Positions 43,604 to 63,644 of a stretch of 64,000 nt of DNA are shown here, in pieces. Within the stretch, counting starts at the first letter, position 1. Each line of letters begins with the position of its first letter. Location of the stretch: NCBI GenBank assembly GCA_016784145.1, contig JADHVF010000002.1, positions 112,357 through 176,356 of the forward strand. Reading direction: 5' to 3'. Made by a program: the position numbers and the translations under genes. The notes beneath the pieces are model-generated. The model was given only the letters and a program-made list of their open reading frames with translations, did no database searches and was not told the DNA's origin. Origin of the DNA: Patescibacteria group bacterium. GTDB taxonomy: Bacteria > Patescibacteriota > Patescibacteriia > UBA2591 > UBA6264.

Positions 43604-44602
43604 TTATTTTAATAATTGTTTTACTTTTTTAATAATATCTTTGTAGGTTGTGTAATATTTCTTTTCAAGAGGGGCACTGGTTGGGGCAGGAGAATCAGGC
43701 AAGCAGACTCTTTTGATTGGTTTTTTTAGATACTTGAATCCTTTATCAGCAACCAAAGCAGAAATCTCTCCAGCAACTCCGCCAGTAAGCCAGGCTGCCT
43801 CAGCAATAATTAATTTCCCTGTTTTTTTAATAGAATTAATAATAATTGGGAGGTCTATTGGTTTAACAGTTCTGATATCAATTATTTCAGCATCAATTTT
43901 ATATTTTTTTAATTCTTCGCCTGCTTTTATGGCTTCATTGGCCATATACGATATTCCAACAATTGTGATATCTTTGCCTTTTTTTCTTATTACCCCTTTT
44001 CCAATTGGAACAGAGTATATTTTTTTTGGAACATTTTCTTTCAGTCCATAAAGCCATCTATCATCAATATATACTACAGGATTATTTGATTTAATGGCTG
44101 ATATCATTAATCCTTTAGCATCATATGGAGTAGCTGGCATTACAACTTGTAGTCCAGGAATATGAGCAAATAAAGATTGGAGTGCTTGAGAATGTTGGGC
44201 TCCTTGTTCACCTCCACGATTAATAATAGGCCAAATTACAACTGATGCGGTTGATTGTCCACCAAAAATATAGTCCCAATTAGCCGCTTGGTTTATTATT
44301 GGGTCTAATCCATAAATCATAAAATCCATTCTTGGATGAACTACAATTGGTCTCATGCCAGCAATACTTGCTCCAATGCCAGCTCCAGTAATAGCATTTT
44401 CAGAAACAGGTGTATCAATTACTCGTTCTTCTCCGTATTTTTCTAATAACCCATTACAAGTATTTCCAACATACCAGGGGCTTTTAACTCCTTGTCCAAT
44501 TAAAAAGACAGATTTGTCTTGACCCATTGCCTGATGGATTGCTTCATTAATTGCCAAACTATAAGTTAATAATCTTTGGTTTTTTTTATTTTTCATATAC
44601 AT
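43604..44602 (-). CDS. Thiamine-diphosphate-dependent 2-oxoacid dehydrogenase E1 beta-like subunit (transketolase pyrimidine-binding plus C-terminal domains)
   Basis: Transket_pyr motifs (VFLIGQGV, GIGASIAGMRPIVV) and a C-terminal transketolase_C fold. It is adjacent to an E1 alpha-like gene. Confidence 0.8.
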   Translation of the reverse strand: MYMKNKKNQRLLTYSLAINEAIHQAMGQDKSVFLIGQGVKSPWYVGNTCNGLLEKYGEERVIDTPVSENAITGAGIGASIAGMRPIVVHPRMDFMIYGLDPIINQAANWDYIFGGQSTASVVIWPIINRGGEQGAQHSQALQSLFAHIPGLQVVMPATPYDAKGLMISAIKSNNPVVYIDDRWLYGLKENVPKKIYSVPIGKGVIRKKGKDITIVGISYMANEAIKAGEELKKYKIDAEIIDIRTVKPIDLPIIINSIKKTGKLIIAEAAWLTGGVAGEISALVADKGFKYLKKPIKRVCLPDSPAPTSAPLEKKYYTTYKDIIKKVKQLLK

Positions 44603-45563
44603 GTTTTAATAATTCTCCTTGTTTTGGAAAATCACTTTTAAGTGTTAATTTATATGCTTTAATAATTTTTGAATTTAATTTTTTATATATATTGTTAATT
44701 GTTTGTTTGTTTAAAATATTTTTTTTCATTAATATTTTCTCAAAATTTTTAATTGGATCTTTTTTAGCCCATTTAATAACTTCTTTATTTGGTCTAATAT
44801 CAGTGTGTTCTCCTTGGATATTGTCATCAGGGCCAACATGTCCTCTCATTCGATATGTTAAGCACTCAATAAAAGAAGGCCCTTGGTTATTTTTGGCATA
44901 CTTTACCATGGTTTTAGTTGTGTTATAAACTTTTAAGACATCATTCCCTTGTACTTGTTTGGAAGGCATGTTATATGACTTGGCAAATTCATAGATTTTA
45001 GTATTAGCCAGACAATCTTTTATTGGCATGTGAGTTGAATATAGGTTATTTTCACAAACAAAAATAATTGGCAATTTTTTTAAAGAAGCAAAGTTTAATG
45101 ATTCATGTAAGACTCCTTCATCAACTGCTCCGTCGCCAAAAAAACTAATTGTTACTTTTTTGTCTTTGTTTATTTTTGATGATAAAGCTGCACCCAAAGC
45201 AAGCGAAATTGTAGCAGCTACCAACGGAACTGTTCCTAATAATCCGTGCTGGTTGTCAATTATATGCATTGACCCTCCTCTTCCTTTTGCACAGCCATCT
45301 TTTTTTCCAAAAATTTCAAGCATTAATTTATCAATGCTTCCTCCTTTGGCCAGATAATGTCCATGAGACCGATGATTTCCAAGAATATAATCATTGTCTG
45401 TTAAAGCAGCACAAACGCCAACAGCAACTGCTTCTTGTCCTGTATATAAATGGCAGGGAGTTTTAATTTCGCCTCTTAGAATTGGATCAACTAGACTTTC
45501 TTCAAACAACCTTATTTCTACCATTTTTTTATATAATTTTAATAAAAATTTTTTGTTTTCCAT
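44586..45563 (-). CDS. Thiamine-diphosphate-dependent 2-oxoacid dehydrogenase E1 alpha-like subunit
   Basis: E1_dh motifs GQEAVAVG, NHRSHGH, FFGDGAVDEG...LPIIFVCENNLYS (ThDP-binding GDG...N). Confidence 0.82.
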   Translation of the reverse strand: MENKKFLLKLYKKMVEIRLFEESLVDPILRGEIKTPCHLYTGQEAVAVGVCAALTDNDYILGNHRSHGHYLAKGGSIDKLMLEIFGKKDGCAKGRGGSMHIIDNQHGLLGTVPLVAATISLALGAALSSKINKDKKVTISFFGDGAVDEGVLHESLNFASLKKLPIIFVCENNLYSTHMPIKDCLANTKIYEFAKSYNMPSKQVQGNDVLKVYNTTKTMVKYAKNNQGPSFIECLTYRMRGHVGPDDNIQGEHTDIRPNKEVIKWAKKDPIKNFEKILMKKNILNKQTINNIYKKLNSKIIKAYKLTLKSDFPKQGELLKHVYEK

Positions 45564-49006: not shown

Positions 49007-50011
49007 TTATTTTAAAGATAATTTAATTAATCCAATTAATGCCCCCATGGCATAACCAAAATGACGACAAGCAAAAGTAATAGGCATTAAAATCAAATAT
49101 TTTATATTTTTTTCTTTATAGGCAATATTAATAGAAAAAAATAGATTTAATAATAAATACAATATAATTATAAACGAGAATAAAAACCAGCTAAAAGAAT
49201 AAAAAATTCCTAATAATCCAGTAAATGTTAAATACAAAACAAAAATTAAAGGGATATAATGTCTTGCTTTAAAAGGTAATTTAACGAATTTTAATGGATA
49301 AATAGACCAAATGCCATCTTGAATATTATGAATAAAAAATTCTTTTAAAGTTGATTTTGGATAGTAGCATGATATTATATCTGGATTTAGAATAATTTTT
49401 CCACCAGCTTTTTTTAATCTTATATTTAATTCCATATCCTGACTTCTCACAAGATTTTCGTTAAATAGTCCAATTTTTTTAAATACATCCTTTTGATAAC
49501 ATCCACCAAATACAGTGTCAACTTCTTTAATTTTACTTAATCCTTTTCTAAAATGTGAACCACCTACGCCAAAAAAACCAGAAAGACAAGTAACAATGGC
49601 TTTAGCTGAAATAGTATTTTCTCGTGGGATTGTTTTTAATATTCCACCGATATTGTCAGCATTATATTCAATTAAAGTTTCAACGCATTTAGAAACATAA
49701 TTTTTTTTATATCCAGCATGAGCATCCATTATCATTGTAATTTCTCCTTTTGCTTTTTCTATGCCAATATTTAGCGCAAATGGTTTGGTTATTTTTTTGT
49801 TAATTAATAATTGAATAGAATGATATTTTTTAGAATATTCTTTTATGATCGACCTTGTTTTGTCATTACTCATTCCATCAATCACTAAAACTTCTATTTT
49901 ATTTTTAAGATAGTTTTGCCAAAGAATAGAATCTAGGCATTTTTTAATAAATTTTTCTTCATTTCTGCAAGGAATTATTATTGAAACAAATGGTAATTTA
50001 TCTTTATTCAT
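49007..50011 (-). CDS. Family-2 glycosyltransferase with a C-terminal membrane anchor
   Basis: VSIIIPCRNEE, DGMSNDKT (DxD), and C-terminal TM helices. Confidence 0.8.
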   Translation of the reverse strand: MNKDKLPFVSIIIPCRNEEKFIKKCLDSILWQNYLKNKIEVLVIDGMSNDKTRSIIKEYSKKYHSIQLLINKKITKPFALNIGIEKAKGEITMIMDAHAGYKKNYVSKCVETLIEYNADNIGGILKTIPRENTISAKAIVTCLSGFFGVGGSHFRKGLSKIKEVDTVFGGCYQKDVFKKIGLFNENLVRSQDMELNIRLKKAGGKIILNPDIISCYYPKSTLKEFFIHNIQDGIWSIYPLKFVKLPFKARHYIPLIFVLYLTFTGLLGIFYSFSWFLFSFIIILYLLLNLFFSINIAYKEKNIKYLILMPITFACRHFGYAMGALIGLIKLSLK

Positions 50012-50013
50012 AT

Positions 50014-51246
50014 TTATTTTTCAAAAATGATATTTATATTTTTTATTTCAAGCCAGTTTTTTTTGTTTTTAGGTTGATAGTTAATTCCAATACTAATATT
50101 AGAAATGCCAGGCCTAAATTTTTTCTTAATAGAATATTTCTTCCATTCAAGAGAATTTATTATGGTTGAATTTCTTTCCCATTCGTCTGTTTTGTCTTGA
50201 ATAAAAATTGAAGCAGAGGTTTTGTCTGATGATATTCTGGCAAAAACATTGAATGTCGCAATAATATTCTCTGGGCTTTGAATGTTTCCGCCATTAATTC
50301 CAAATTGAATAACAGATTGTTCAGAAGTATGTGGTTTTATTAATTGTATTTTTACAATATTATCATTTTTTTCTTTTGTTCTTTGAAAGGAAAAATTTCC
50401 TCTATTTCCTGACAAAATTAATGGAGGAGATGTTTTGGTTAATTCTTCCATTGTTATTTTATCAGGTCCACTCCATATAGAAAAATCATTTTTATATTCA
50501 TCAATTTTTATTAGATTTTTTTTATTTTGTGATATATCTAGTATGAATAATGTTTTTCCATTGTGTTTTATACTTTTTATTTTTTGAGCAGAAGGAAAAT
50601 ATCTATAGATAATTTTTTCATTGTCTGTTAAAACTTGATTTCCATTAATTTTGTCTAAAAGATTAGTTTCTTTTTTTATAAATGATATATTTTTTTTAAT
50701 TAAGTTTTCATTTAGATATTGTGACTTGTATTTAGCGTCAAATATTCTTTTATATTTTTCATCAAAAAATATTCTATATATCCATAAAATGCGATCTGAA
50801 TTATTATGTTTGTTCCATTCTTCAATATAGATGCTAAATTTTTTATCTGGAACCATATTTAAAATAGGAGCATTTTGATAAAAGAAATTGGATTCTTCTC
50901 TATCAAAATCAGCTTTTTTAAAGGCAAGGCCTCCATTAAAAAATGAAAGTAGAAAAGAAGAAATAAAAATAAATAAAATTAATGATTTGGTTGTTTTTGA
51001 TATTAAAAGATAAATTAAAGCGCCAAATAAAATTATTGGACCAAATGAATATAATTTATTAATTATTGTTGGATAATTTAATAAGGTTGACCCATAAATA
51101 TCAAGCGGTTGCAAGTAATTGTAACTATAATTAAATGTTTTTACAGGACTATATTTAATCCCAATTTTAATCCCAAGCACTATTAAAATTAATGTTAAGA
51201 TTAAAACAATAGTTAGTAAATGCTTGCTGATATTTTTTTTATTCAT
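50014..51246 (-). CDS. Hypothetical membrane protein (three N-terminal TM helices plus a roughly 300-aa extracytoplasmic domain); possibly the periplasmic partner or domain of the adjacent GT-C glycosyltransferase
   Basis: Hydrophobic helices at about residues 10-27, 67-83 and 88-105. It overlaps the upstream gene by 8 nt. No recognisable catalytic motifs. Confidence 0.4.
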   Translation of the reverse strand: MNKKNISKHLLTIVLILTLILIVLGIKIGIKYSPVKTFNYSYNYLQPLDIYGSTLLNYPTIINKLYSFGPIILFGALIYLLISKTTKSLILFIFISSFLLSFFNGGLAFKKADFDREESNFFYQNAPILNMVPDKKFSIYIEEWNKHNNSDRILWIYRIFFDEKYKRIFDAKYKSQYLNENLIKKNISFIKKETNLLDKINGNQVLTDNEKIIYRYFPSAQKIKSIKHNGKTLFILDISQNKKNLIKIDEYKNDFSIWSGPDKITMEELTKTSPPLILSGNRGNFSFQRTKEKNDNIVKIQLIKPHTSEQSVIQFGINGGNIQSPENIIATFNVFARISSDKTSASIFIQDKTDEWERNSTIINSLEWKKYSIKKKFRPGISNISIGINYQPKNKKNWLEIKNINIIFEK

Positions 51247-52261
51247 TTTTGGTTGTATTTTTAATTAAATCAGATAAATATATCGCTAATCCTAGACAAG
51301 TAAATACGTAGGCTGTATAAATATAGCTAGGAATAGCTGGTCCATTTGCCTTTAATATGCTTATAATGATTATATTTCCCCAAGCAAAAAGAAATAAATT
51401 TCTAGTTTTTTCTTTTTTATATGCTTTAACAACAATAAACAATGCAATTAGAGGGAAATATTTGATTGACAATAGAGTTTTATAAAAATATCCAGCATTA
51501 GTACCATAATGAGGGTTATTTATTGCATTAATATTAGAAATAAGACCATTGTTCCCAAAAAAGAATTGATTATATACATTTACAAAAGATTGCCAATTAT
51601 ATAATGAAATAAATAGTAAAACGATAATAATGGTTCCTAAGATCATGCCAGTTATAAATTGTTTTAATTTTTTCCAATCTTTTTTATAAATAATATGTCC
51701 AAGAAAAAATAGGGGAGCCATTATTCCAGTTGCTTTTGTTAGTGTTGCCAATGAAGCAAATATTCCTGAAATTAAGATTGAGTTAAAATATTTTTTTTCT
51801 TTTATGTTTGAAAAATAAAAGAAAAATGAGATTAAGCAATAAAGAGCGACTGTTTGGTCTGGATATAAATATGTTCCCCAGCCAAGCATTAAATAAGAAG
51901 AATTTATAAATAAGCCAATTAATAATGATGCCCATATCCCTGATTTTTTAAAAGCCCAAAGCATTGATATGGATAAAATTAGAGAATTAATGAATCCTAT
52001 ATATACCATCCCTGCAATATATATTTTTGAAAAGAAAATCGTGAATAATTTAAGATTTACTGCCAGGCTTATTCTGTCTAGCCAAGGCCAATATCCATAT
52101 GTTGTCCCCCAGGCAGCAGATCCTAGATATTGCAATGGGTCTGATGGAGTTGGTAGGGTCCAAAAATATTTTATTAAGTGAGTAATGTATAATATAACAA
52201 ACAAAAGTAATACCATGTATATTTGTTTATTATTATTTGTAATTTTGCTTATAATTTTCAT
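51239..52261 (-). CDS. GT-C-fold polytopic membrane glycosyltransferase (ArnT/PMT_2-like)
   Basis: About ten TM helices. The first extracytoplasmic loop carries an acidic PSDP motif, and the length and layout fit the TM core of PMT_2 / GT39 / GT83 proteins. Confidence 0.5.
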   Translation of the reverse strand: MKIISKITNNNKQIYMVLLLFVILYITHLIKYFWTLPTPSDPLQYLGSAAWGTTYGYWPWLDRISLAVNLKLFTIFFSKIYIAGMVYIGFINSLILSISMLWAFKKSGIWASLLIGLFINSSYLMLGWGTYLYPDQTVALYCLISFFFYFSNIKEKKYFNSILISGIFASLATLTKATGIMAPLFFLGHIIYKKDWKKLKQFITGMILGTIIIVLLFISLYNWQSFVNVYNQFFFGNNGLISNINAINNPHYGTNAGYFYKTLLSIKYFPLIALFIVVKAYKKEKTRNLFLFAWGNIIIISILKANGPAIPSYIYTAYVFTCLGLAIYLSDLIKNTTKNE

Positions 52262-52262
52262 T

Positions 52263-54263
52263 TTATTTGTTATAAAGTTTTGGAATTGAATTTATTATTT
52301 TTAATGTTTTTTCAAAATCAATTTTTATAGTATTACAATACCATTTAATTGATTCATATCTTGGCCTATTTTCGTCTTCAGCCAACATTAATGCTTTTTC
52401 CCTAGTAATTACTCCTTCTCTAATTTGATTACTTCTAAATGTATTATTTTCAGTAAACCCAGCTACTATATAATAAATATAATTATAAAATGCTACTGTG
52501 CCATCACCAATTCGCCAGGTATTTTTTGTATGTGGATCTGTTTCCCAGTCATATTCTTCAATAAGTGTTTTATTTATTTTTCTCTCTTCCCACTTTATAA
52601 AATTATAAATATTAATATTTTGATGTTTAATTAGATAGTAGGACTTAAAGGCGTCTATGGTATCGAATAGCGAAGAATTAAGATATGCCGGATTTAATAT
52701 GTATTCTTTCCCATAAAAATAAAGCATTTTTAATTTATTTTTAGAGGTAAGAGCGTATGTATTTTTTTTGTCAAAATTTGGCTTAATTTTACATAAACCA
52801 GATTTAAAATTAGTTGTTTCTAATAAGTTTTCTCCAAGAATAGAAATTTTTAAATTATTTTGTTTCATAAGAAGATTGGCATAGTAGAAATATTTTTTAT
52901 CCCCAGCCATAAATAAAGGGATTGTTCCAAGGTTTGGCCTTTTTATCCAAGCTAATATATTTTTTTTAATATTTTCCCTTTTTTTTCTAATATCAGCAGA
53001 AATTAAAATATGCTCTATTCCCAGTTTTCCACAAATTCTTGATTGATTCCTTCTGCCCAAATCAGTTATCATTCCCCAGTCATAAGAATAAGCTAATGGG
53101 TTCATTTTTAATTCTTTTTTTAGAAAATGAAGCATATAGCTACTATCTCTCCCTCCACTAAAGGGAACTAGACAATCATGTCGGCTGTTTGGTTTTTGAT
53201 ATTTTTTAAGAATATTTTTTAAATTCTGTTTTCCTTGATAGTTTATTTTAAAATATTTATTGCAATAATTACAAACGCCATTTTTATCAAAATAAATATA
53301 AGGAAAGGTTTCAGGGAGTATACATTGTTTGCAATATTTTATTTTAGAAATTTCTTTTTTTCTTTGTTGGTATGTTTTATAAAATTGATTTGAAATATTT
53401 TGAGCATTATACTCAAAACTGGTGTTAATGTATTTGTCTTTCTTTTTTGAAATTACAGCAATATCTTTTATTTTTCTAGGGACAGATAATGTCTTAATAT
53501 TTGTAAAATTTTGACAGGCTTTAATGTTTGTTTTTTCGTGTTTTATTTTTTTTAAATCTAGCAAAAGATATTCTCCTGCTTTTAATTGAGTGATATTTTT
53601 TTCAGAAAAGTAATTATTTAATTTATTTTTTTTAATGAATTTTTTTAATATATAAAATTCTGACGCAAAAGCAAATATATTGTTTGATTCATCTAAAAGA
53701 TAATATAAAGAACCGTTATTTGTAGCCAGGAGTAAATTATTTAAATTATTAAATAAAATTGCGACAGAAGTCATCCCATAAATTTTATTGAATAATATCT
53801 TTATTGTTTCTGATAAATTTTTATTATTATTTAGTTCAGAAGAAATAATTACAGGAATTATTTCAGTGTCTAATTGGCTTTGTTTTATTTCTTTTGAGTA
53901 GTCTCTCCAGAGGTCTTTAGTATTTACAATTATGCCATTATGGATAACAGCTAGTTTGTTTTTAATTACGGGCTGATTATTTTTATTTTCATGTTCGTAC
54001 CCATCGGTTACTAGTCGCGAGTGTCCAATACATCCAATAAAATTTTTGTTTATTTTAGCAAAACATTTATTAAATGATTTGCTTTTTATAAAATAACGTG
54101 CCCTGTTAGGAGTTTTGCATACATTTATTTTTTTATCATCAATCAAAGCAATTCCAGATGCTTCCTTCCCTCTTGATTCAGATAAAATAAAAAGACTTTT
54201 TATTAGTTTTTTTTGTTTAAAATTAGTTTTTTCTTTTGTTATAACACCAAATATTCCACACAT
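52263..54263 (-). CDS. Asparagine synthetase B-like glutamine-dependent amidotransferase (WbpS/AsnB family)
   Basis: The N-terminus MCGIFG has the catalytic Cys2 of class II amidotransferases. PP-loop LVPFSGGRDSS; 666 aa. Confidence 0.85.
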   Translation of the reverse strand: MCGIFGVITKEKTNFKQKKLIKSLFILSESRGKEASGIALIDDKKINVCKTPNRARYFIKSKSFNKCFAKINKNFIGCIGHSRLVTDGYEHENKNNQPVIKNKLAVIHNGIIVNTKDLWRDYSKEIKQSQLDTEIIPVIISSELNNNKNLSETIKILFNKIYGMTSVAILFNNLNNLLLATNNGSLYYLLDESNNIFAFASEFYILKKFIKKNKLNNYFSEKNITQLKAGEYLLLDLKKIKHEKTNIKACQNFTNIKTLSVPRKIKDIAVISKKKDKYINTSFEYNAQNISNQFYKTYQQRKKEISKIKYCKQCILPETFPYIYFDKNGVCNYCNKYFKINYQGKQNLKNILKKYQKPNSRHDCLVPFSGGRDSSYMLHFLKKELKMNPLAYSYDWGMITDLGRRNQSRICGKLGIEHILISADIRKKRENIKKNILAWIKRPNLGTIPLFMAGDKKYFYYANLLMKQNNLKISILGENLLETTNFKSGLCKIKPNFDKKNTYALTSKNKLKMLYFYGKEYILNPAYLNSSLFDTIDAFKSYYLIKHQNINIYNFIKWEERKINKTLIEEYDWETDPHTKNTWRIGDGTVAFYNYIYYIVAGFTENNTFRSNQIREGVITREKALMLAEDENRPRYESIKWYCNTIKIDFEKTLKIINSIPKLYNK

Positions 54264-54267
54264 AATT

Positions 54268-55554
54268 TTAAATTTTTATTTTTAATTTTTTCCAAGTAAA
54301 AATTTTTAAATAAAGAATGCCTAAGATAAATGACGTTCCAGTAGCTATTGCGGCTCCATACATTCCAAAAACAGGGATAAGTATTAAATTTAAGATAATA
54401 TTACTTATAAAAAATAAAGATACAAAAAATGTTTGATACCCAGGAAATCCTGTTTGTGTAAGAAGCATTCTGAAAGGGGCATAGCCAACACAGATAATTT
54501 GAAACAAAATTAAAATAGAGAATATTGGCCATGCTTTTGAAAATTCGGTTTTTATTTTTAATAAGGAAAGCATTAGAGGAAAGAGAAAAATAGATAACAC
54601 CCCTATAGGAAACATAATTTTATATGTAAGATTTCTTCCACTAGATATTAAAGATTTTAATGCTTGTTTTGTTTTTTTAAATTTGTATCTAGCTAAAAGA
54701 GGATTAATATTTATTTTAAAAGCAGCTGTTAGCTGGTCAAATCCTTCAGCCAATATTGCAGCTAAGCTATAGATGCCAACAGTACTGTCTGATACAAAAA
54801 AGCCCAACATAATAATATCAGTTCTTGTGTTTAAGTCTAGTAAAGCATGTCCTAGCAATCCTTTGACGCCAAATTTAATGTGTTTAATAATCCATTGTAT
54901 TATTTTTTTAGAAAAAGAATATTTTATAAATTTAATACTATAAATAAAAAGTATAACAAAAGTAATTCCTTCAGCTAAAGAAAATATAACAGGCAATTTA
55001 TTTACATCAATTTTTAAATAGATGAAAAGAATAAGAGATAGTAATAATAAACAAAATCTTATTATATTTATGCTTGCATAAAATTTCATTTTGCGACAAG
55101 CATTATAAAATGATAAATATATTTTGTTTATTGCTAGGAAGAATAGCCCAGGTAATCCATAATAAATACCAATACTAACAGATGGGCTATTTAGCAGAAT
55201 GCCAATAAAGTCTTTTAGCCAAAAGACAGATATTGAAATTAAAAAAGAAATAATAATAGTTAAATACAAGGAAGACGAAAATATAATATTTTTTTTATTG
55301 TAATCAGTATGGAATTGAGAAACATTTTTCAAGACAGATAGATGGATTCCTGCTACAGAAAGTTGAGAGAAAAAAATAAAAAAAGCATATACTTGATTAA
55401 AAACTCCAAGGACCGAAGTATTGTAGAATTTAGCAATAATAATGTTTAATAAAATTCCAATTATTCCCATTATTACGAAGCTTAAAATATTCCAACTAAC
55501 ATCAATATTAAATTTTTGAGAAGTTGGTATTTTATTTAAAATTTTTTTTAACAT
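54268..55554 (-). CDS. wzx: Oligosaccharide flippase (Wzx, MOP superfamily)
   Basis: About 12 TM helices in 428 aa, with the polysaccharide-biosynthesis-protein N-terminal pattern; it sits inside the glycan cluster. Confidence 0.7.
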   Translation of the reverse strand: MLKKILNKIPTSQKFNIDVSWNILSFVIMGIIGILLNIIIAKFYNTSVLGVFNQVYAFFIFFSQLSVAGIHLSVLKNVSQFHTDYNKKNIIFSSSLYLTIIISFLISISVFWLKDFIGILLNSPSVSIGIYYGLPGLFFLAINKIYLSFYNACRKMKFYASINIIRFCLLLLSLILFIYLKIDVNKLPVIFSLAEGITFVILFIYSIKFIKYSFSKKIIQWIIKHIKFGVKGLLGHALLDLNTRTDIIMLGFFVSDSTVGIYSLAAILAEGFDQLTAAFKININPLLARYKFKKTKQALKSLISSGRNLTYKIMFPIGVLSIFLFPLMLSLLKIKTEFSKAWPIFSILILFQIICVGYAPFRMLLTQTGFPGYQTFFVSLFFISNIILNLILIPVFGMYGAAIATGTSFILGILYLKIFTWKKLKIKI

Positions 55555-55564
55555 AAAATACTTT

Positions 55565-56122
55565 TTATTCTCTTTTTTTAATTACCTTGCATGGTACACC
55601 AACAGCGATTGAATATGGAGGAATATTCTTAGTAACAACAGCCCCTGCTCCAATTATTGATCCTTTTCCAATTTTTACTCCTTTGTTTATAATGACATGT
55701 CCTCCAATCCAAACATCGTCTTCAATAATTACTTTTCCTATAATAAATCCTTGTTCAGCGATTAATTTATCAGAATCTGTTTTATGGTCAGCAGTATTAA
55801 TCATTGTTCTAGCTGCGATTCTTACTCCTTTGCCAATCTTTACTTCCCCTGTTCCATCAATGATTACCCCTTCATTTAAAGAACACTTTTCTCCAATTTT
55901 TACATTCCAGGGGAAATAAATATTAACCATTTCTCCGATATAAGATGTTTTTAAATTTCTTCCCATGAATAATTTTAAAACAAGATAACGAAGATAATTA
56001 CATAAAGGGAATGGAATATATTTAACCATTCCATACAAAGCAAAATAAATTGCATGAATGAAATAATTTTTAAAATTATGCATTTTATTTCTTGGAAGAT
56101 ATTTTGTTTTTTTTGAATTCAT
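55565..56122 (-). CDS. Hexapeptide-repeat (left-handed beta-helix) acyl/acetyltransferase
   Basis: C-terminal hexad repeats ([42 protein letters not shown]) and a terminal ...GVPCKVIKK. The probable start is the Met at 56122, not 56215. Confidence 0.8.
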
Positions 56123-56127
56123 TTTTA

Positions 56128-57081
56128 TTATTTTTTTGTTAATTTTTTGTTGTCTTCCATGTCTAGCCACATTCCAAAAAAGAAGGAAAAAAAACCCATC
56201 ATTATGGAAAAACAAAGAATAATTAATGTAGTTTTTGGAGCTTCGTTTAATTTGAAAAATAAGTAAAAAAACCTGATCATTAATGGCATGGAAATAAGGA
56301 AGATGTTAATAAAGCTAAACAGGTAAAAAAATATTAATGGATGAAATTCTCTTACAAGATATTTATGAGTCATTCTTCTTAAATATAGTATTAGAAGAAG
56401 ATAACTAACCTTGGGAATATAAGTTATTAATTTTATTTTGCTTTTTTCTTCTCCGTAAATTGGCTTAACTTCAACATCTTGCACTTTAATGTTTGCAAGA
56501 TTTAACATATTTAGAATGTCTGCATTATATCCATATCCTTTTGTCATTTTTTTAATATTTATTGATTCGAGGGCTTGAAGCGAAATAGCAGTATATCCAC
56601 ATTGTGGGTCGATTAAACTCCAGTATCCGGTTGCGAATTTAGTAAGCAATGTTAAAAAAGAATTGCCAATTAATCGATGCATTGGCATGATTTTACTAAT
56701 ATTATGAGTTAATAGACGATTTCCTTTAACATAGCCGATATTTTTTTTAATAATTGGTTCAATGATTTTATGTAAATCATCTGGGTCCATTTGAGCATCG
56801 CCTGCCATAATAGCGATAATATCTATTTTTAATTCAATGCTTTTTAAGTAGCCATCTATCAAAGACTGTCCAAGTCCTTGATTTTTTTTATGATTAATTA
56901 AGATAATTCTTTTATCTTGATTCTTATATCCTTCAATAATATTTTTTGTTTTGTCTTTGCTAAAATCATTGACGACAATAATTTTGTCTACAAAGTTAGG
57001 GATAGTTGCTAGAGTTTTTTCAATTAATTTTTCCTCGTTGTATGCTGGTACAACTACTCCAATAGATTTATTTTTCAACAT
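56128..57081 (-). CDS. Polyprenyl-phosphate glycosyltransferase (GT2, ArnC/GtrB/DPM1-like) with C-terminal TM helices
   Basis: [11 protein letters not shown], DxD (GDAQMDPDD), and two C-terminal TM helices typical of GtrB/ArnC. Confidence 0.8.
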
Positions 57082-58053: not shown

Positions 58054-59172
58054 TTATTTTAATAATTTTTTATATACTTTTAATAATTTTTTGCTTTCTT
58101 TCTCCCAATTATATCTTTTTAAAATAGCTTTTTGTCCATTTTCTCTCATTTGTTTTGCTTGTTCTGGATGTTTTATGAAATGTTCAATTGTCTCAGCAAT
58201 TTTTTTAGGTTTTTTTGGATCAACACAAAACCCACAATCATTTTTTTCTATAATTTCTTTCCATAAGGGAAAATCAGATGCAATTATTGGCAATTTATTT
58301 ATCATATATTCAAAAATTTTATTTGGGATTGCATTAATGTGATTTGGTTCAGGGAGAAAACAGATAAGACCTATATTAGCATTATTCATGTGTTGATATG
58401 CTTTTTTTTGAGGTAAGAACCCTAAGAAGTTGATACTATTCCATTCTGCCATACTCTTAATCTCTTCTTCAAACTTTTTTTCAGAAAATTTACCAATTAA
58501 TGTTAATTTTACATTATATTTAGAATTAATATACTTTAAAGATTTAATAATTTTTTTAATTCCTCTTTCTTTTGACAAACCACCAACATAAATCAATTCA
58601 ATATATTTTTTTGAGTTTGCTTCTTTTTTCTTTTCTTCTTTTGGAAATAAAGAAAGAATAGGATAATTTTTAATATCAATTACATTATTTTGTTTAAAAT
58701 TACTTTTAATATTTGGTGTAGCAGTGATAATATAATCTAATTTTTTAGATACCCATTTTTCAAATAAATTAAATAAATTAGAAATTATTTTTCTAAATAT
58801 TTTAGGAATCCAATGTTTAGATAAAATTTGTTTAGTAACATCTTCATGAACATCGTAAATTATTTTTGCTTCTGTTTTCTTTTTTAGTTTTAGCATCCAT
58901 GGCAATAATTCTGGATCATGAAAATGATATATATCTGCTTTTTGTTTTAAGGCTTTTCTATAGGTTAAATAATCTAGTTTTAAAAATCTTTTAATTCTGT
59001 TTCTAGATTTTGGAATAGCAATTATTTTTATTTTATCTATTGTTTCATTTTTATTATGCTGGGCGATTAAAGTAACATTGTAACCTGAATTAACTAATGT
59101 TTTAGTTTGTTTATAAAAAATTCTTGTATCAAGCAAAGGATGAACAGACGTAAGAATGCAAATTTTATTCAT
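58054..59172 (-). CDS. GT-B fold glycosyltransferase, family 4
   Basis: C-terminal EX7E-type motif region (E..NHINAIPNKIFEYM...LPIIASD). Confidence 0.8.
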   Translation of the reverse strand: MNKICILTSVHPLLDTRIFYKQTKTLVNSGYNVTLIAQHNKNETIDKIKIIAIPKSRNRIKRFLKLDYLTYRKALKQKADIYHFHDPELLPWMLKLKKKTEAKIIYDVHEDVTKQILSKHWIPKIFRKIISNLFNLFEKWVSKKLDYIITATPNIKSNFKQNNVIDIKNYPILSLFPKEEKKKEANSKKYIELIYVGGLSKERGIKKIIKSLKYINSKYNVKLTLIGKFSEKKFEEEIKSMAEWNSINFLGFLPQKKAYQHMNNANIGLICFLPEPNHINAIPNKIFEYMINKLPIIASDFPLWKEIIEKNDCGFCVDPKKPKKIAETIEHFIKHPEQAKQMRENGQKAILKRYNWEKESKKLLKVYKKLLK

Positions 59173-60445
59173 ATTTTCTATTTAAGTTTTCTTTTGGTAA
59201 TAAATATAATAATAATAAAGCGAGTAAAAGGCCGTGCGTGATAAAGGCAGTAAGCAAAGCTGTTCCTCGGATGGATAATATAAATGTTGCCAGAACTGCC
59301 ATTACTACTTTAATATTTTTTTTATAAGAAATATTGTCTATTAATTTTAGGATAAATGATAATATTATAGCCCATAACAGCATGCCTAAAAATCCAAAAT
59401 TTATGTATCCATCGCTAATAATTCCATTATTGGGATTACCTGCTGGGTTGCTTAAGTAGTTTTTTGCTATAAGTTTCGAGGGAGATAATTCATATGGATA
59501 ATTTATGAAATTTTGAAAAAAGTGATGCTGAGAAAGATATGTATATGGATTTTCTGAAAAAAAATCATAGTAAAAAAATGATAATTGTGCTGGCACTAGT
59601 AAACTTCGTCGTATAGCAAAAGAAGGGGGTAAGAGGTCATTTGTTGTGTAATAAATTAGTACACTTAACAATATTAATCCGATCAAGCTAATTGTTATTC
59701 TTGAATAAAAGTTTTTTTTATTTAAAGCCCAAATTAATACTAATATAAATGGTAATATGAATAAATATAATTTATTTCCTGTTCCAGAAAATAACAATAT
59801 TTGAAGCAATGTGGTTAATATAAGTAATCCCCATTTTTTTTTAATTAAAAATATTGTAAAAAATAAAGGTCCTATAATTTTTGCAAACCAATTTAATGTA
59901 TAATTAGCAAGTAAGACATGTAGATTAGCATAGCTAGAGCGTATTTCATATACATTTCTGATATTAAAATTTATTTGGAATCCTAAGTATTTATAAATAA
60001 AAATAAAAGATAAAGTTGAAATAATGATAAATATTGTCCATATAATAGCTTTAGATTGTTTTATTTTTTTAATATTTAATTTAAGAGGGATAGCTTGTAT
60101 TATCAAAGAAATTATTATCCAGAAAAAAGTGGAGGCATACATAAAGATTCTTGATTCATCCATTAGGCAGAAAAGAGTAAGCATTGGAATATAAGATATT
60201 AAAAATAGCATCCATAAAATTATATGAGATGGTTTTTTTGTTTTTTTAGGAATGAGAACAAAAACAATGAAAAGTAATAAATATGATTCAATTAATTTAA
60301 AAGAATTAGGTTGAAATACAAACTTAGAGTAAGCCCAAAAAGGAGAAATAATCAAATAATAGGATAGATCTAAAATAACTCTATAAATAATTATAAGAGT
60401 AAATATTTTTATTTTGTTTTTTTTAATTACTAATGCTTTTAGCAT
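59165..60445 (-). CDS. O-antigen polymerase/ligase-like polytopic membrane protein (Wzy-like)
   Basis: More than ten TM helices, a large loop near the C-terminal third, and a neighbouring wzx and GTs. No enzymatic motifs can be assigned. Confidence 0.5.
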   Translation of the reverse strand: MLKALVIKKNKIKIFTLIIIYRVILDLSYYLIISPFWAYSKFVFQPNSFKLIESYLLLFIVFVLIPKKTKKPSHIILWMLFLISYIPMLTLFCLMDESRIFMYASTFFWIIISLIIQAIPLKLNIKKIKQSKAIIWTIFIIISTLSFIFIYKYLGFQINFNIRNVYEIRSSYANLHVLLANYTLNWFAKIIGPLFFTIFLIKKKWGLLILTTLLQILLFSGTGNKLYLFILPFILVLIWALNKKNFYSRITISLIGLILLSVLIYYTTNDLLPPSFAIRRSLLVPAQLSFFYYDFFSENPYTYLSQHHFFQNFINYPYELSPSKLIAKNYLSNPAGNPNNGIISDGYINFGFLGMLLWAIILSFILKLIDNISYKKNIKVVMAVLATFILSIRGTALLTAFITHGLLLALLLLYLLPKENLNRKYE

Positions 60446-61822: not shown

Positions 61823-62734
61823 TTATTTTTTAATTTTATATATGATCATGGATATTATTTGTTTTAAGGAATTATTTTTTATTTTATTCATTATATTATA
61901 AAAATTTACCATAATATAGTTTCCTTTAGAAAATGTCCATTTTAATCTACAGCTTTTGCATCCAGGGTTATAGCAAAGAATAAACTCAGGAGTTTTTAAA
62001 AGTTTGGTTATTTCTATCTTTAAAGTTTTTTTCATACTAGTTGTTTTTGCATAAGCATCTCCTAATTTTCCTTCAGATAAAATTGCATTAAAATTTTTAT
62101 ATAATGGCAAAAACTTTCTAAAACCAGAAACACATGCTTCTGGCCAATTAATTTTAAAAAGTTTAATATCACCATTTTTATTAATATAATTTATTCCTAA
62201 ATTGCGTTGTTTTTTTTGTTTTAACCCGGCTAATTTTATTGCTACATGAGTTGTCCCAACCCCGACTATCTTGTTATCTTTTCCTATATTTAAATTTTTT
62301 GCATTTTTATTTGACATTATCCGTAATGGATTATAAGCAAAATTATTTGCTGTATGATTTTGCATCAAGTTCTTGGCATCATGCCCTATTGCTACAAATT
62401 TTTGAATTGGGTGATGACTACGAAACATTTTTGGATGATTTACCATTGTATTAACAAATATTCCAGCATATGAATGTGTTTTATTGTTGCTAATTTTCTT
62501 CCAATTTTTCTTTGAAAGAGGGAGTTTATAGCAAGAAACAAAAGCTTCAGAGACAATGGTGCCCGTTTCTCCAATTATATCAAGAAGCGCTTCAATCAAC
62601 GTATTGGCCCCTCCTTTAATTGGTCCAATTGATTTCATTGAAACTTTCAGGTTAACTAGATCTCCCTTTTTGAGTCCTAAATTATATAGATCTTTTATTA
62701 TTGTTTCCTTGTTATGTTTATGTTTTTGTTTCAT
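61823..62734 (-). CDS. AAC(3)-family (aminoglycoside 3-N-acetyltransferase-like) acyl-CoA N-acyltransferase
   Basis: The N-terminus LYNLGLKKGDLVNLKVSMKSIGPIKGGANTLIEALLDIIGETGT matches the Antibiotic_NAT (PF02522) signature. Confidence 0.7.
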   Translation of the reverse strand: MKQKHKHNKETIIKDLYNLGLKKGDLVNLKVSMKSIGPIKGGANTLIEALLDIIGETGTIVSEAFVSCYKLPLSKKNWKKISNNKTHSYAGIFVNTMVNHPKMFRSHHPIQKFVAIGHDAKNLMQNHTANNFAYNPLRIMSNKNAKNLNIGKDNKIVGVGTTHVAIKLAGLKQKKQRNLGINYINKNGDIKLFKINWPEACVSGFRKFLPLYKNFNAILSEGKLGDAYAKTTSMKKTLKIEITKLLKTPEFILCYNPGCKSCRLKWTFSKGNYIMVNFYNIMNKIKNNSLKQIISMIIYKIKK

Positions 62735-63644
62735 TATTTTTTCTATAATTTTGAAAAGAAATTATTGCTTTGTGCTTGTTAATTGTTTTCTTTGCTTTTT
62801 CAATTGTTGGTGGAGAAATAAAAATATTATTATATACTGCTATGCCTCTATTTGTTTTTATTGCTCTGTTGTGTAATTTAATAATTTCTTGAGCTTCTGT
62901 TATTTCTTTTTTTGAAGGAGTATATAGTTTTTCTACTATTGGAATTTCGCGAGGAGACATGACTAACATGCCTTCGAATCCTACTTGTTTTGCTTGTTTA
63001 ATATGTTCTTTTAGGCCTTCAAAATTACCTATATCAACATAAGGTGTATCAATTGCTGATATTTTTGCTGCTTTGGCAGCCATAGAAATCATGTGTCTTG
63101 GGACTAATATTGATGTTCCGATAGAATTATGTTCACCTTCTGTTTCTTGCAAAAAATCTTCACTCCCAAAAAGGAGTCCTTTTATTCTGGGTGACGAAAA
63201 AGCTATGTTATAAACATCAAGGACAGCTTCAGGAGTCTCAATAAGCGCTATAATATTAAAGTATCCTATAGGCAGTTTTAACTCTTTTTCTTTGGTGGCC
63301 AATTTTTCACTGAATAATTTAATGCATTTTGTATTATAGATTTTTGGGAATACAAATCCAGTAAGATTTTTAGATGCTATAGCATTTATGTCTTTTGACA
63401 AAAAGCCACTTTCTATTGAATTGACCCTAACATAAATTGGCCGATTATCTACAATATTAGATTCTAGGACTTTTTTGATCATTTTCCTTGCTTTGCTTTT
63501 ACTGTTTTTAGGAGTTGCATCTTCAAGGTCCAGAACCACTACATCTGCATTAGTAGAAAATGCTTTTTTAATGTATTTTTCATTATGCCCAGCACTGAAT
63601 AAAAGGGTTCTTATTATTAATTTTTTTGAATATTTTTTTTTCAT
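62718..63644 (-). CDS. HpcH/HpaI aldolase / citrate lyase beta subunit (CitE)-like (acyl-CoA lyase family)
   Basis: IRTLLFSAGHNEKYIKKAFSTNADVVVLDLEDA matches the CitE N-terminal motif (R..L.VPG........KA....AD.V..DLEDA); about 300 aa TIM barrel. Confidence 0.7.
   Translation of the reverse strand: MKKKYSKKLIIRTLLFSAGHNEKYIKKAFSTNADVVVLDLEDATPKNSKSKARKMIKKVLESNIVDNRPIYVRVNSIESGFLSKDINAIASKNLTGFVFPKIYNTKCIKLFSEKLATKEKELKLPIGYFNIIALIETPEAVLDVYNIAFSSPRIKGLLFGSEDFLQETEGEHNSIGTSILVPRHMISMAAKAAKISAIDTPYVDIGNFEGLKEHIKQAKQVGFEGMLVMSPREIPIVEKLYTPSKKEITEAQEIIKLHNRAIKTNRGIAVYNNIFISPPTIEKAKKTINKHKAIISFQNYRKNNETKT

Follow-up and report, generated by a model that had tools for sequence, protein, structure and literature searches.

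A predicted GT-C glycosyltransferase encoded by two adjacent genes in a recurring module of a Patescibacteria glycan operon

The window, a 64,000-nucleotide (nt) stretch of a Patescibacteria contig (JADHVF010000002.1) with a G+C content of about 28%, contains a glycan operon that occupies positions 39617-64000 of the minus strand as one tightly packed unit. Here we describe the interval 50014-57081 of this operon, which, judging from the gene neighbourhoods of relatives, behaves as a recurring module, and above all two overlapping open reading frames (ORFs) that together appear to encode one membrane glycosyltransferase of the GT-C type. Besides the genes of this interval, the operon encodes a Wzz-like protein, a PglF-like dehydratase, a DegT aminotransferase, E1 alpha and beta subunits, a PglC-like phosphoglycosyltransferase, methyltransferases, aminotransferases, GT2 and GT4 enzymes, and a Wzy-like polymerase. 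Upstream of the window the operon runs on (locus L008) with WbpA/B/D/I-like genes for a diacetamido-uronic acid, a second flippase of 529 amino acids (aa) and a divergent Wzy_C gene.

Two overlapping reading frames and their fused relatives

The two ORFs, and the outer domains modelled in the second, are the following.

51239-52261, minus strand: putative GT-C glycosyltransferase N-terminal subunit, 340 aa; roughly ten transmembrane helices plus the first outer loop; corresponds to the N-terminal half of fused homologues
50014-51246, minus strand: putative GT-C glycosyltransferase C-terminal subunit, 410 aa; three membrane helices, an NGGxA motif and outer domains; aligns with the C-terminal halves of fused homologues
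50527-50838, minus strand: alpha/beta outer (periplasmic-type) domain of the C-terminal subunit, residues ~477-580 of the joined model, from the model secondary structure
50017-50508, minus strand: C-terminal beta-sandwich resembling a carbohydrate-binding module (CBM), residues ~587-750 of the joined model

Both ORFs lie on the minus strand at the coordinates given in the initial annotation, with an overlap of 8 nt (51239-51246, ATGAATAA). In the 410-aa protein, the helix prediction and the model agree with the proposed three transmembrane helices and outer part of about 300 residues: hydrophobic helices at about 4-35, 64-86 and 85-109 are followed in the model by some 300 soluble residues. 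Searches of Pfam and NCBIfam with this protein gave no match, and no NCBIfam model matches either subunit. The 340-aa protein is 100% identical to an NCBI entry assigned to a Patescibacteria group bacterium. Its homologues are mostly single proteins of 503-588 aa, and a profile search brought up numerous longer relatives, each one protein of 740-784 aa. The 410-aa protein has only two significant matches, both of them among the homologues of the 340-aa protein.

When aligned, the 340-aa and 410-aa sequences correspond end to end to one protein of 740-784 aa, gap-free at the junction. A shorter form of the family (550-590 aa) lacks the last ~165 residues, and with them the beta-sandwich. Wherever a contig reaches beyond the junction, the two parts are conserved together, either fused or adjacent. 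These alignments indicate that the two ORFs make up one membrane glycosyltransferase, which is a single protein in most relatives, and they bear out the earlier suggestion that the 410-aa protein is the missing part of the enzyme.

Conserved residues are found on both sides of the junction. D41, Y45, R63, K176 and Y281 of the 340-aa subunit are conserved throughout the aligned family; D62, next to R63, is also conserved. D41, present in 29 of 29 aligned residues, locates 9 residues past the model helix 2-32, in the first outer loop, which also holds Y45 and the D62-R63 pair; D41 may be catalytic. In the 410-aa subunit, an N-G-G-x-A motif just after the last membrane helix is conserved in 27-30 of 30 sequences. 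A near-invariant motif on the second chain suggests that the 410-aa subunit is more than a passive appendage.

The junction itself is ordinary for this operon. The 22 genes between 39617 and 63644 (minus strand) lie 1-11 nt apart or share 4-44 nt with the next gene, the exceptions being one 48-nt gap and one 88-nt overlap, the latter stemming from a doubtful TTG start of the ORF at 55565-56215. No recognisable Shine-Dalgarno sequence precedes any gene of this stretch. At 59165-59172, an 8-nt overlap identical to that at 51239-51246 links two unrelated genes, one Wzy-like and one GT4. Given this reuse between unrelated genes and the tight spacing throughout the operon, the junction of the two ORFs gives no sign of an error.

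The split recurs in two other contigs, each with a junction of its own. In L004, whose halves are 64% and 59% identical to those of the window, an in-frame TAA lies between the halves and a GTG start follows three codons on. In L025, where the pair is more distant (363 aa and 354 aa), 32 nt lie between the two halves. All three splits hit one loop, between helices 10 and 11, which coincides with the sole low-confidence internal segment of the model (residues 338-344). The Lys-rich ends on either side suggest, by the positive-inside rule, that this loop is cytoplasmic. In a neighbour-joining tree the window and L004 proteins group with a fused protein (P0016), so their two splits probably arose as independent events.

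The frame could also have been broken by a disabling mutation, or by a sequencing error in a homopolymer of this A-rich region, which would make the locus a pseudogene. The junction does sit among runs of A; the nearest relative in the tree, P0016, is fused; and the lesions differ, a frame shift in the window and an in-frame TAA in L004, as recent independent events might leave them. We nevertheless consider a pseudogene very unlikely, since the three splits share one poorly conserved loop and in each a start codon directly follows, before helix 11, and since the same ATGAATAA overlap joins unrelated genes of the operon. Moreover, the exact 340-aa product is encoded on five contigs from several sources, and the 410-codon downstream frame is intact at about 25% G+C with all family-conserved residues kept; base composition gives an estimated chance of about 4e-17 for a stop-free run of this length. 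A frameshift artefact near position 51240, which the initial annotation had raised, is rejected as the main explanation in view of the normal style of the overlap, the product on five contigs and the recurrent splits with different junctions.

Production of a fused protein by programmed frameshifting or stop read-through is considered unlikely: there is no recognisable slippery site, and the stop codon in L004 is TAA. In some related lineages, the stop codon reassigned is UGA.

Two further observations concern members of the family elsewhere. The Patescibacteria metagenome-assembled genome UBA4787 holds two paralogous copies about 4.7 kb apart (L005:10001-12298 and L005:16973-17587), in the same cluster as two GT2 genes of the dolichol-P-mannose synthase (DPMS) type. 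The gene at L003:10001-11512 is called as 503 aa (P0005), and on near-identical contigs it reads as a 589-aa ORF (L018:9953-11722); P0005 is probably C-terminally truncated by an assembly or gene-calling difference.

Fold and family of the joined enzyme

Most glycans of the cell surface are built or decorated by GT-C enzymes, many of which have no assigned family. We modelled the 340 + 410 aa sequence joined as an artificial fusion, with 29 homologues, and obtained a predicted local distance difference test (pLDDT) score of 88.9 and a predicted template-modelling (pTM) score of 0.79; most of the 410-aa part has a pLDDT above 85. The membrane domain is polytopic and shows the GT-C architecture. 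ArnT is the top Foldseek match (E = 2.8e-07), over about 600 columns that span both the membrane domain and the periplasmic domain of ArnT. The strongest fold matches are enzymes with dolichyl-phosphate mannose (Dol-P-Man) or undecaprenyl-phosphate (Und-P) sugar donors. On this model, the 340-aa protein appears to be the membrane core of an ArnT/PMT-like GT-C enzyme, as had been supposed initially, and it belongs to no transporter family.

Sequence comparisons set the family apart, with GT87 as a borderline case. The 340-aa protein scores 24.2 bits against Pfam GT87 (cut-off 25; borderline, below threshold) and 20.0 bits against PMT_2 (PF13231; cut-off 26.1), which its relative P0003 matches with 26.7 bits; of 71 family members, no more than 14 reach PMT_2 at E <= 0.01. 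A family profile of 30 sequences gave no match at E <= 1 among PDB sequences, the solved ArnT included. Neither window ORF matches Pfam PMT or MIR, PMT is matched by 2 of the 71 members, and the likeness to protein O-mannosyltransferases (GT39) is limited to the fold. The WWDYG-type motif of oligosaccharyltransferases (GT66) was searched as WW[DE] or WxDxG-type and occurs in none of the 30 family sequences. Nor is there an arn operon around the enzyme: no ArnA, ArnB, ArnD or ArnE/F genes were found, only generic ArnA matches of a sugar epimerase/dehydratase.

When 1.84 billion representatives were searched exhaustively, 166 clusters emerged at E <= 0.001; the family occurs in uncultivated lineages (Patescibacteria, Bacteroidales, Desulfobacterium and Latescibacterota). 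A scan of species-representative genomes yielded three loci only, so that taxonomic statistics are thin. These comparisons place the enzyme in a small GT-C family that is uncharacterised and has a CBM-like domain, outside sequence-based membership of ArnT/PMT_2, PMT and GT66. In a limited literature search we found no relevant paper on a split GT-C enzyme, on this family in Patescibacteria, or on PF03706 in glycosylation.

The neighbouring genes and their recurrence

Upstream of the two GT-C genes lie four further genes of the module, and one GT2 gene follows directly downstream.

56128-57081, minus strand: GT2a, candidate polyprenyl-phosphate sugar synthase (DPMS/ArnC/GtrB type); GT-A domain and C-terminal two-helix membrane hairpin
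55565-56215, minus strand: hexapeptide-repeat acyltransferase (WcaF/WbbJ-like); Pfam Hexapep E = 5.5e-13, NCBIfam WcaF family E = 7e-29
54268-55554, minus strand: Wzx-like (MOP superfamily) candidate flippase, 428 aa; Pfam Polysacc_synt E = 2e-14
52263-54263, minus strand: glutamine-dependent amidotransferase, 666 aa; class-II GATase and PP-loop WbuX-type N-acetyl-sugar amidotransferase domains
49007-50011, minus strand: GT2b, membrane-anchored generic GT2; directly downstream of the GT-C genes; orthologues beside or near the GT-C gene

GT2a matches Pfam Glycos_transf_2 (PF00535) with E = 8e-24 and, in NCBIfam, aligns over its full length with AglJ and also matches PpgS. We searched the PDB with a profile of GT2a and three relatives (306 positions). 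The profile matches the DPMS of P. furiosus (5mlz) with E = 1.7e-26 over positions 2-286 and ArnC with E = 1.9e-18 over positions 5-288, full length in both cases, and GtrB sll0501 with E = 1.7e-13 over positions 6-172, the catalytic half only. A single-sequence AlphaFold model of GT2a was poor (pLDDT 49) and was left unused. The full-length matches to DPMS and ArnC argue for a protein of the polyprenyl-phosphate sugar synthase type, in line with the initial annotation.

That annotation had also named two sequence features of GT2a. The C-terminal transmembrane pair is present (245-278 and 283-306), whereas the DxD motif is degenerate: GT2a reads AGDAQ, against DADxQ in the related GT2s at L003:11721-12575 and L005:9013-9996. 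In the aligned GT2s the second Asp and the Gln of DADxQ are invariant, and the first Asp is replaced by Ala in GT2a. The AGDAQ form is shared by a 46%-identical orthologue (L005:2083-3027).

Gene associations were counted over about 16 non-redundant loci with usable flanks. In eight of them (the window, L003, L005 with two copies, L016, L017, L021 with two copies, L028 and L029) GT2a-type genes are close to the GT-C gene, and in L003, L005, L017 and L021 directly adjacent to it. This linkage to DPMS-type GT2 genes leads us to infer that the GT-C enzyme would use a polyprenyl-phosphate-linked donor.

The genes between GT2a and the GT-C genes recur as well, a point that goes beyond the initial annotation. 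Homologues of the acetyltransferase adjoin Wzx-like and GT-C genes in L003, L020 and L027, and homologues of the 428-aa Wzx-like protein lie beside or near the GT-C gene in L003, L007, L009, L020, L024 and L027. The amidotransferase matches Pfam GATase_7 (E = 1.8e-13) and, over residues 309-652, NCBIfam WbuX (E = 2.4e-41). Its orthologues, 41-59% identical, are near the GT-C gene in L003, L005, L006, L020 and L021, and it also recurs in L028. There, the WbuX domain is fused to an LPG_synthase_TM (MprF-flippase-like) membrane domain (L028:1920-4190, 756 aa), and the GATase is a separate 251-aa protein (L028:4250-5005). The fusion hints that amidation takes place at the membrane, on a lipid-linked sugar.

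LPG_synthase_TM (PF03706) occurs in loci without the 428-aa Wzx-like gene (L004:1995-2912, L005:15929-16900 and L028:1920-4190), and the reverse also holds. In this small sample, the two may be alternative flippases for the lipid-linked donor. The GT-C gene itself always locates inside polysaccharide gene clusters with phosphoglycosyltransferase, Wzx, Wzy or Wzz genes.

The start of the acetyltransferase gene deserves a remark. The listed TTG gives the 88-nt overlap with GT2a, an internal ATG at 56122 leaves a 5-nt gap, and the database gene call (L008) is 201 aa; translation probably begins at a later codon than the listed TTG.

GT2b is a generic enzyme. Loci L001, L007 and L009 have orthologues of it, 38-58% identical, beside or near the GT-C gene, and a GT2b profile matches the PDB only over the first ~115 residues, to many GT2s. 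GT2b, a methyltransferase and a phosphoglycosyltransferase form a conserved trio in L001 and L007; in L009 the gene order is altered. GT2b probably belongs to repeat-unit assembly, outside the donor route. As a donor synthase it is ruled out by the lack of a full-length match to DPMS, ArnC or GtrB.

Other features of the cluster are given here as separate observations. With its upstream continuation (L008:1104-3095, L008:7915-9504), the full cluster holds two MOP-type flippases, of 529 aa (L008) and 428 aa (window 54268-55554), and two Wzy-type proteins, a 426-aa polymerase-like protein (59165-60445) and a divergent 663-aa Wzy_C protein. Paired flippases and paired Wzy-type proteins are consistent with two lipid-linked routes. 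At 43604-45563 (minus strand), a thiamine-diphosphate-dependent E1 alpha/beta dehydrogenase pair lies between the phosphoglycosyltransferase and the DegT aminotransferase; it is kept at 57-64% identity in the glycan clusters of relatives (L001, L009 and L027) and is unusual in sugar tailoring. At 61823-63644 (minus strand) and L008:9518-9994, the operon groups a protein like HpcH/HpaI aldolase or the citrate lyase beta subunit with a MaoC-type dehydratase and an aminoglycoside-3-N-acetyltransferase-like protein, which suggests an unusual N-acyl group on an amino sugar. DUF7033 is found in a 462-aa protein adjoining this group.

A possible outer-face route, and known systems

From homology and fold, the existence of fused relatives, the repeated splits and the linked genes, we propose that the interval 50014-57081 encodes a self-contained, outer-face glycosylation route of the three-component type inside a larger Wzx/Wzy-type glycan operon. 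We regard this proposal as reasonably probable. At the cytoplasmic face of the membrane, GT2a would move a sugar from a nucleotide sugar onto polyprenyl phosphate. The acetyltransferase and the WbuX-type amidotransferase would then tailor the sugar, maybe when it is already lipid-linked, and the 428-aa Wzx-like protein would flip the lipid-linked sugar. In the last step the GT-C enzyme would transfer the sugar to an extracytoplasmic acceptor; the most likely one is the polymerised glycan, with the C-terminal CBM-like domain holding it. In this enzyme the 340-aa subunit would contribute helices 1-10 and the catalytic first outer loop, and the 410-aa subunit helices 11-13, the NGGxA motif and the outer domains, the two assembling in the membrane. 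The outcome would be decoration, after polymerisation, of a glycan or a protein; we favour a glycan because of the CBM-like domain and the gene context.

Several points weigh against this proposal. No GT2a-type gene lies within the available sequence of L001, L006, L007, L009, L011, L020, L025 and L027; with about half of the informative loci lacking one, the link between GT2 and GT-C genes is an association and no rule. The Wzx-like gene could be a mere repeat-unit flippase, and no GtrA-family flippase gene was found. The GT-C fold alone does not tell polyprenyl-phosphate monosaccharide donors from polyprenyl-diphosphate oligosaccharide donors. The model comes from an artificial fusion and is therefore no proof that separate chains assemble. 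Finally, many members of the family lack the CBM-like domain, in which no binding residues are conserved.

One alternative concerns the donor. The GT-C enzyme could use a polyprenyl-diphosphate-linked oligosaccharide, flipped by the adjacent Wzx-like protein, and act as an oligosaccharyltransferase, a ligase or a polymerase. We think this unlikely: a WWD(YG)-type motif is present in 0 of 30 family members, DPMS-type GT2 genes are adjacent in four independent loci, and the best fold matches belong to users of Dol-P-Man or Und-P-sugar donors. The cluster, besides, already has separate Wzy-like and Wzy_C (ligase-like) genes.

The other alternative keeps the donor route and replaces the acceptor with a protein of the cell surface, for instance an S-layer protein or a pilin, in the manner of PMT-type O-glycosylation. 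This appears quite improbable to us, as neither subunit has a MIR or other Pfam domain, the C-terminal domain resembles polysaccharide-binding modules, and the GT-C gene is invariably in a polysaccharide cluster (phosphoglycosyltransferase, Wzx, Wzy or Wzz genes).

The overall type of pathway that we propose is already well known. What is new, as far as the comparisons indicate, is that the two ORFs form one enzyme that is fused elsewhere, that the split recurs at one loop, that the enzyme represents a small uncharacterised family, and that its genes belong to a recurring module. At the split, between helices 10 and 11, the enzyme divides into a catalytic core and an acceptor-binding part that can be made separately; such a natural split may be useful for dissecting the GT-C mechanism and for expressing difficult membrane proteins. 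As a recurring unit, the module raises the possibility of sugar tailoring after lipid linkage and of a Wzx-type or MprF-like flippase for polyprenyl-phosphate sugars.

In the Arn pathway, the Und-P-L-Ara4FN synthase ArnC is followed by on-lipid deformylation by ArnD, the flippase ArnE/F and the GT-C transferase ArnT. GT2a matches ArnC over its full length, ArnT is the best Foldseek match over the membrane and periplasmic domains, and in both systems tailoring enzymes stand between donor synthesis and transfer. In contrast, the window family has no sequence-level match to ArnT, the 340-aa protein stays below the PMT_2 threshold, and homologues of ArnA, ArnB, ArnD and ArnE/F were not seen at the window operon. 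The host here belongs to the Patescibacteria, the acceptor is probably a CBM-bound glycan as opposed to lipid A, and the enzyme is divided over two genes. We tentatively speculate, as a rather doubtful extension, on an Arn-like modified-sugar pathway in which a DPMS-type GT2 would load the sugar, acetylation and amidation would follow on the lipid, and a Wzx-type or LPG_synthase_TM-type protein, interchangeably, would flip it. Transfer would fall to a previously uncharacterised GT-C family, obligately two-subunit in at least three sampled contigs and apparently the first split GT-C glycosyltransferase.

The three-component systems GtrA/GtrB/Gtr* (Shigella, Salmonella), GacI/GacK/GacL (S. pyogenes) and CsbB/GtcA/YfhO combine a GT2 polyprenyl-phosphate sugar synthase, a flippase and an extracytoplasmic GT-C enzyme, encoded together within or beside a glycan cluster; the module proposed here would follow this logic, with a candidate flippase. 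GacK, the proposed flippase of GlcNAc-P-Und, is a Wzx-family protein (bioRxiv 10.1101/180810) and parallels the 428-aa Wzx-like gene. The module described here differs in having no GtrA-family gene, another GT-C family, additional acetyltransferase and amidotransferase genes, and a split GT-C enzyme; some relatives of the window locus carry LPG_synthase_TM in place of the Wzx-like protein. The flippase step of such three-component systems is still without direct experimental proof (PMC11127046).

The GT136 system of Citrobacter youngae O1 consists of a lipid-donor synthase (ORF15), a MATE-family flippase and a GT-C enzyme with a CBM (ORF12); the C-terminal CBM of ORF12 binds the unmodified polysaccharide backbone, and modification takes place after polymerisation (PMC11127046). 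It shares with the window locus an added C-terminal domain on the GT-C enzyme, a CBM there and CBM-like here, and a proposed flippase of the MOP/MATE superfamily. Its donor synthase is a phosphoribosyl diphosphate (PRPP)-dependent polyprenyl phosphoribose synthase (PMC11127046), in contrast to the DPMS-type GT2 here.

The mycobacterial Emb/Aft arabinosyltransferases differ more strongly: they are far larger single polypeptides without sequence similarity to the window enzyme, and their decaprenyl-phosphate arabinose is made by another route. For the split itself, a comparison can be made with Alg13/Alg14, the eukaryotic split counterpart of the bacterial MurG-type GT-B enzymes: some organisms have this glycosyltransferase as a single chain, others as two chains that assemble. 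Alg13/Alg14 has a GT-B fold, a soluble catalytic half recruited to a membrane anchor, and acts at the cytoplasmic face, all unlike the enzyme proposed here; it nevertheless offers a precedent for a glycosyltransferase made as two chains that assemble.

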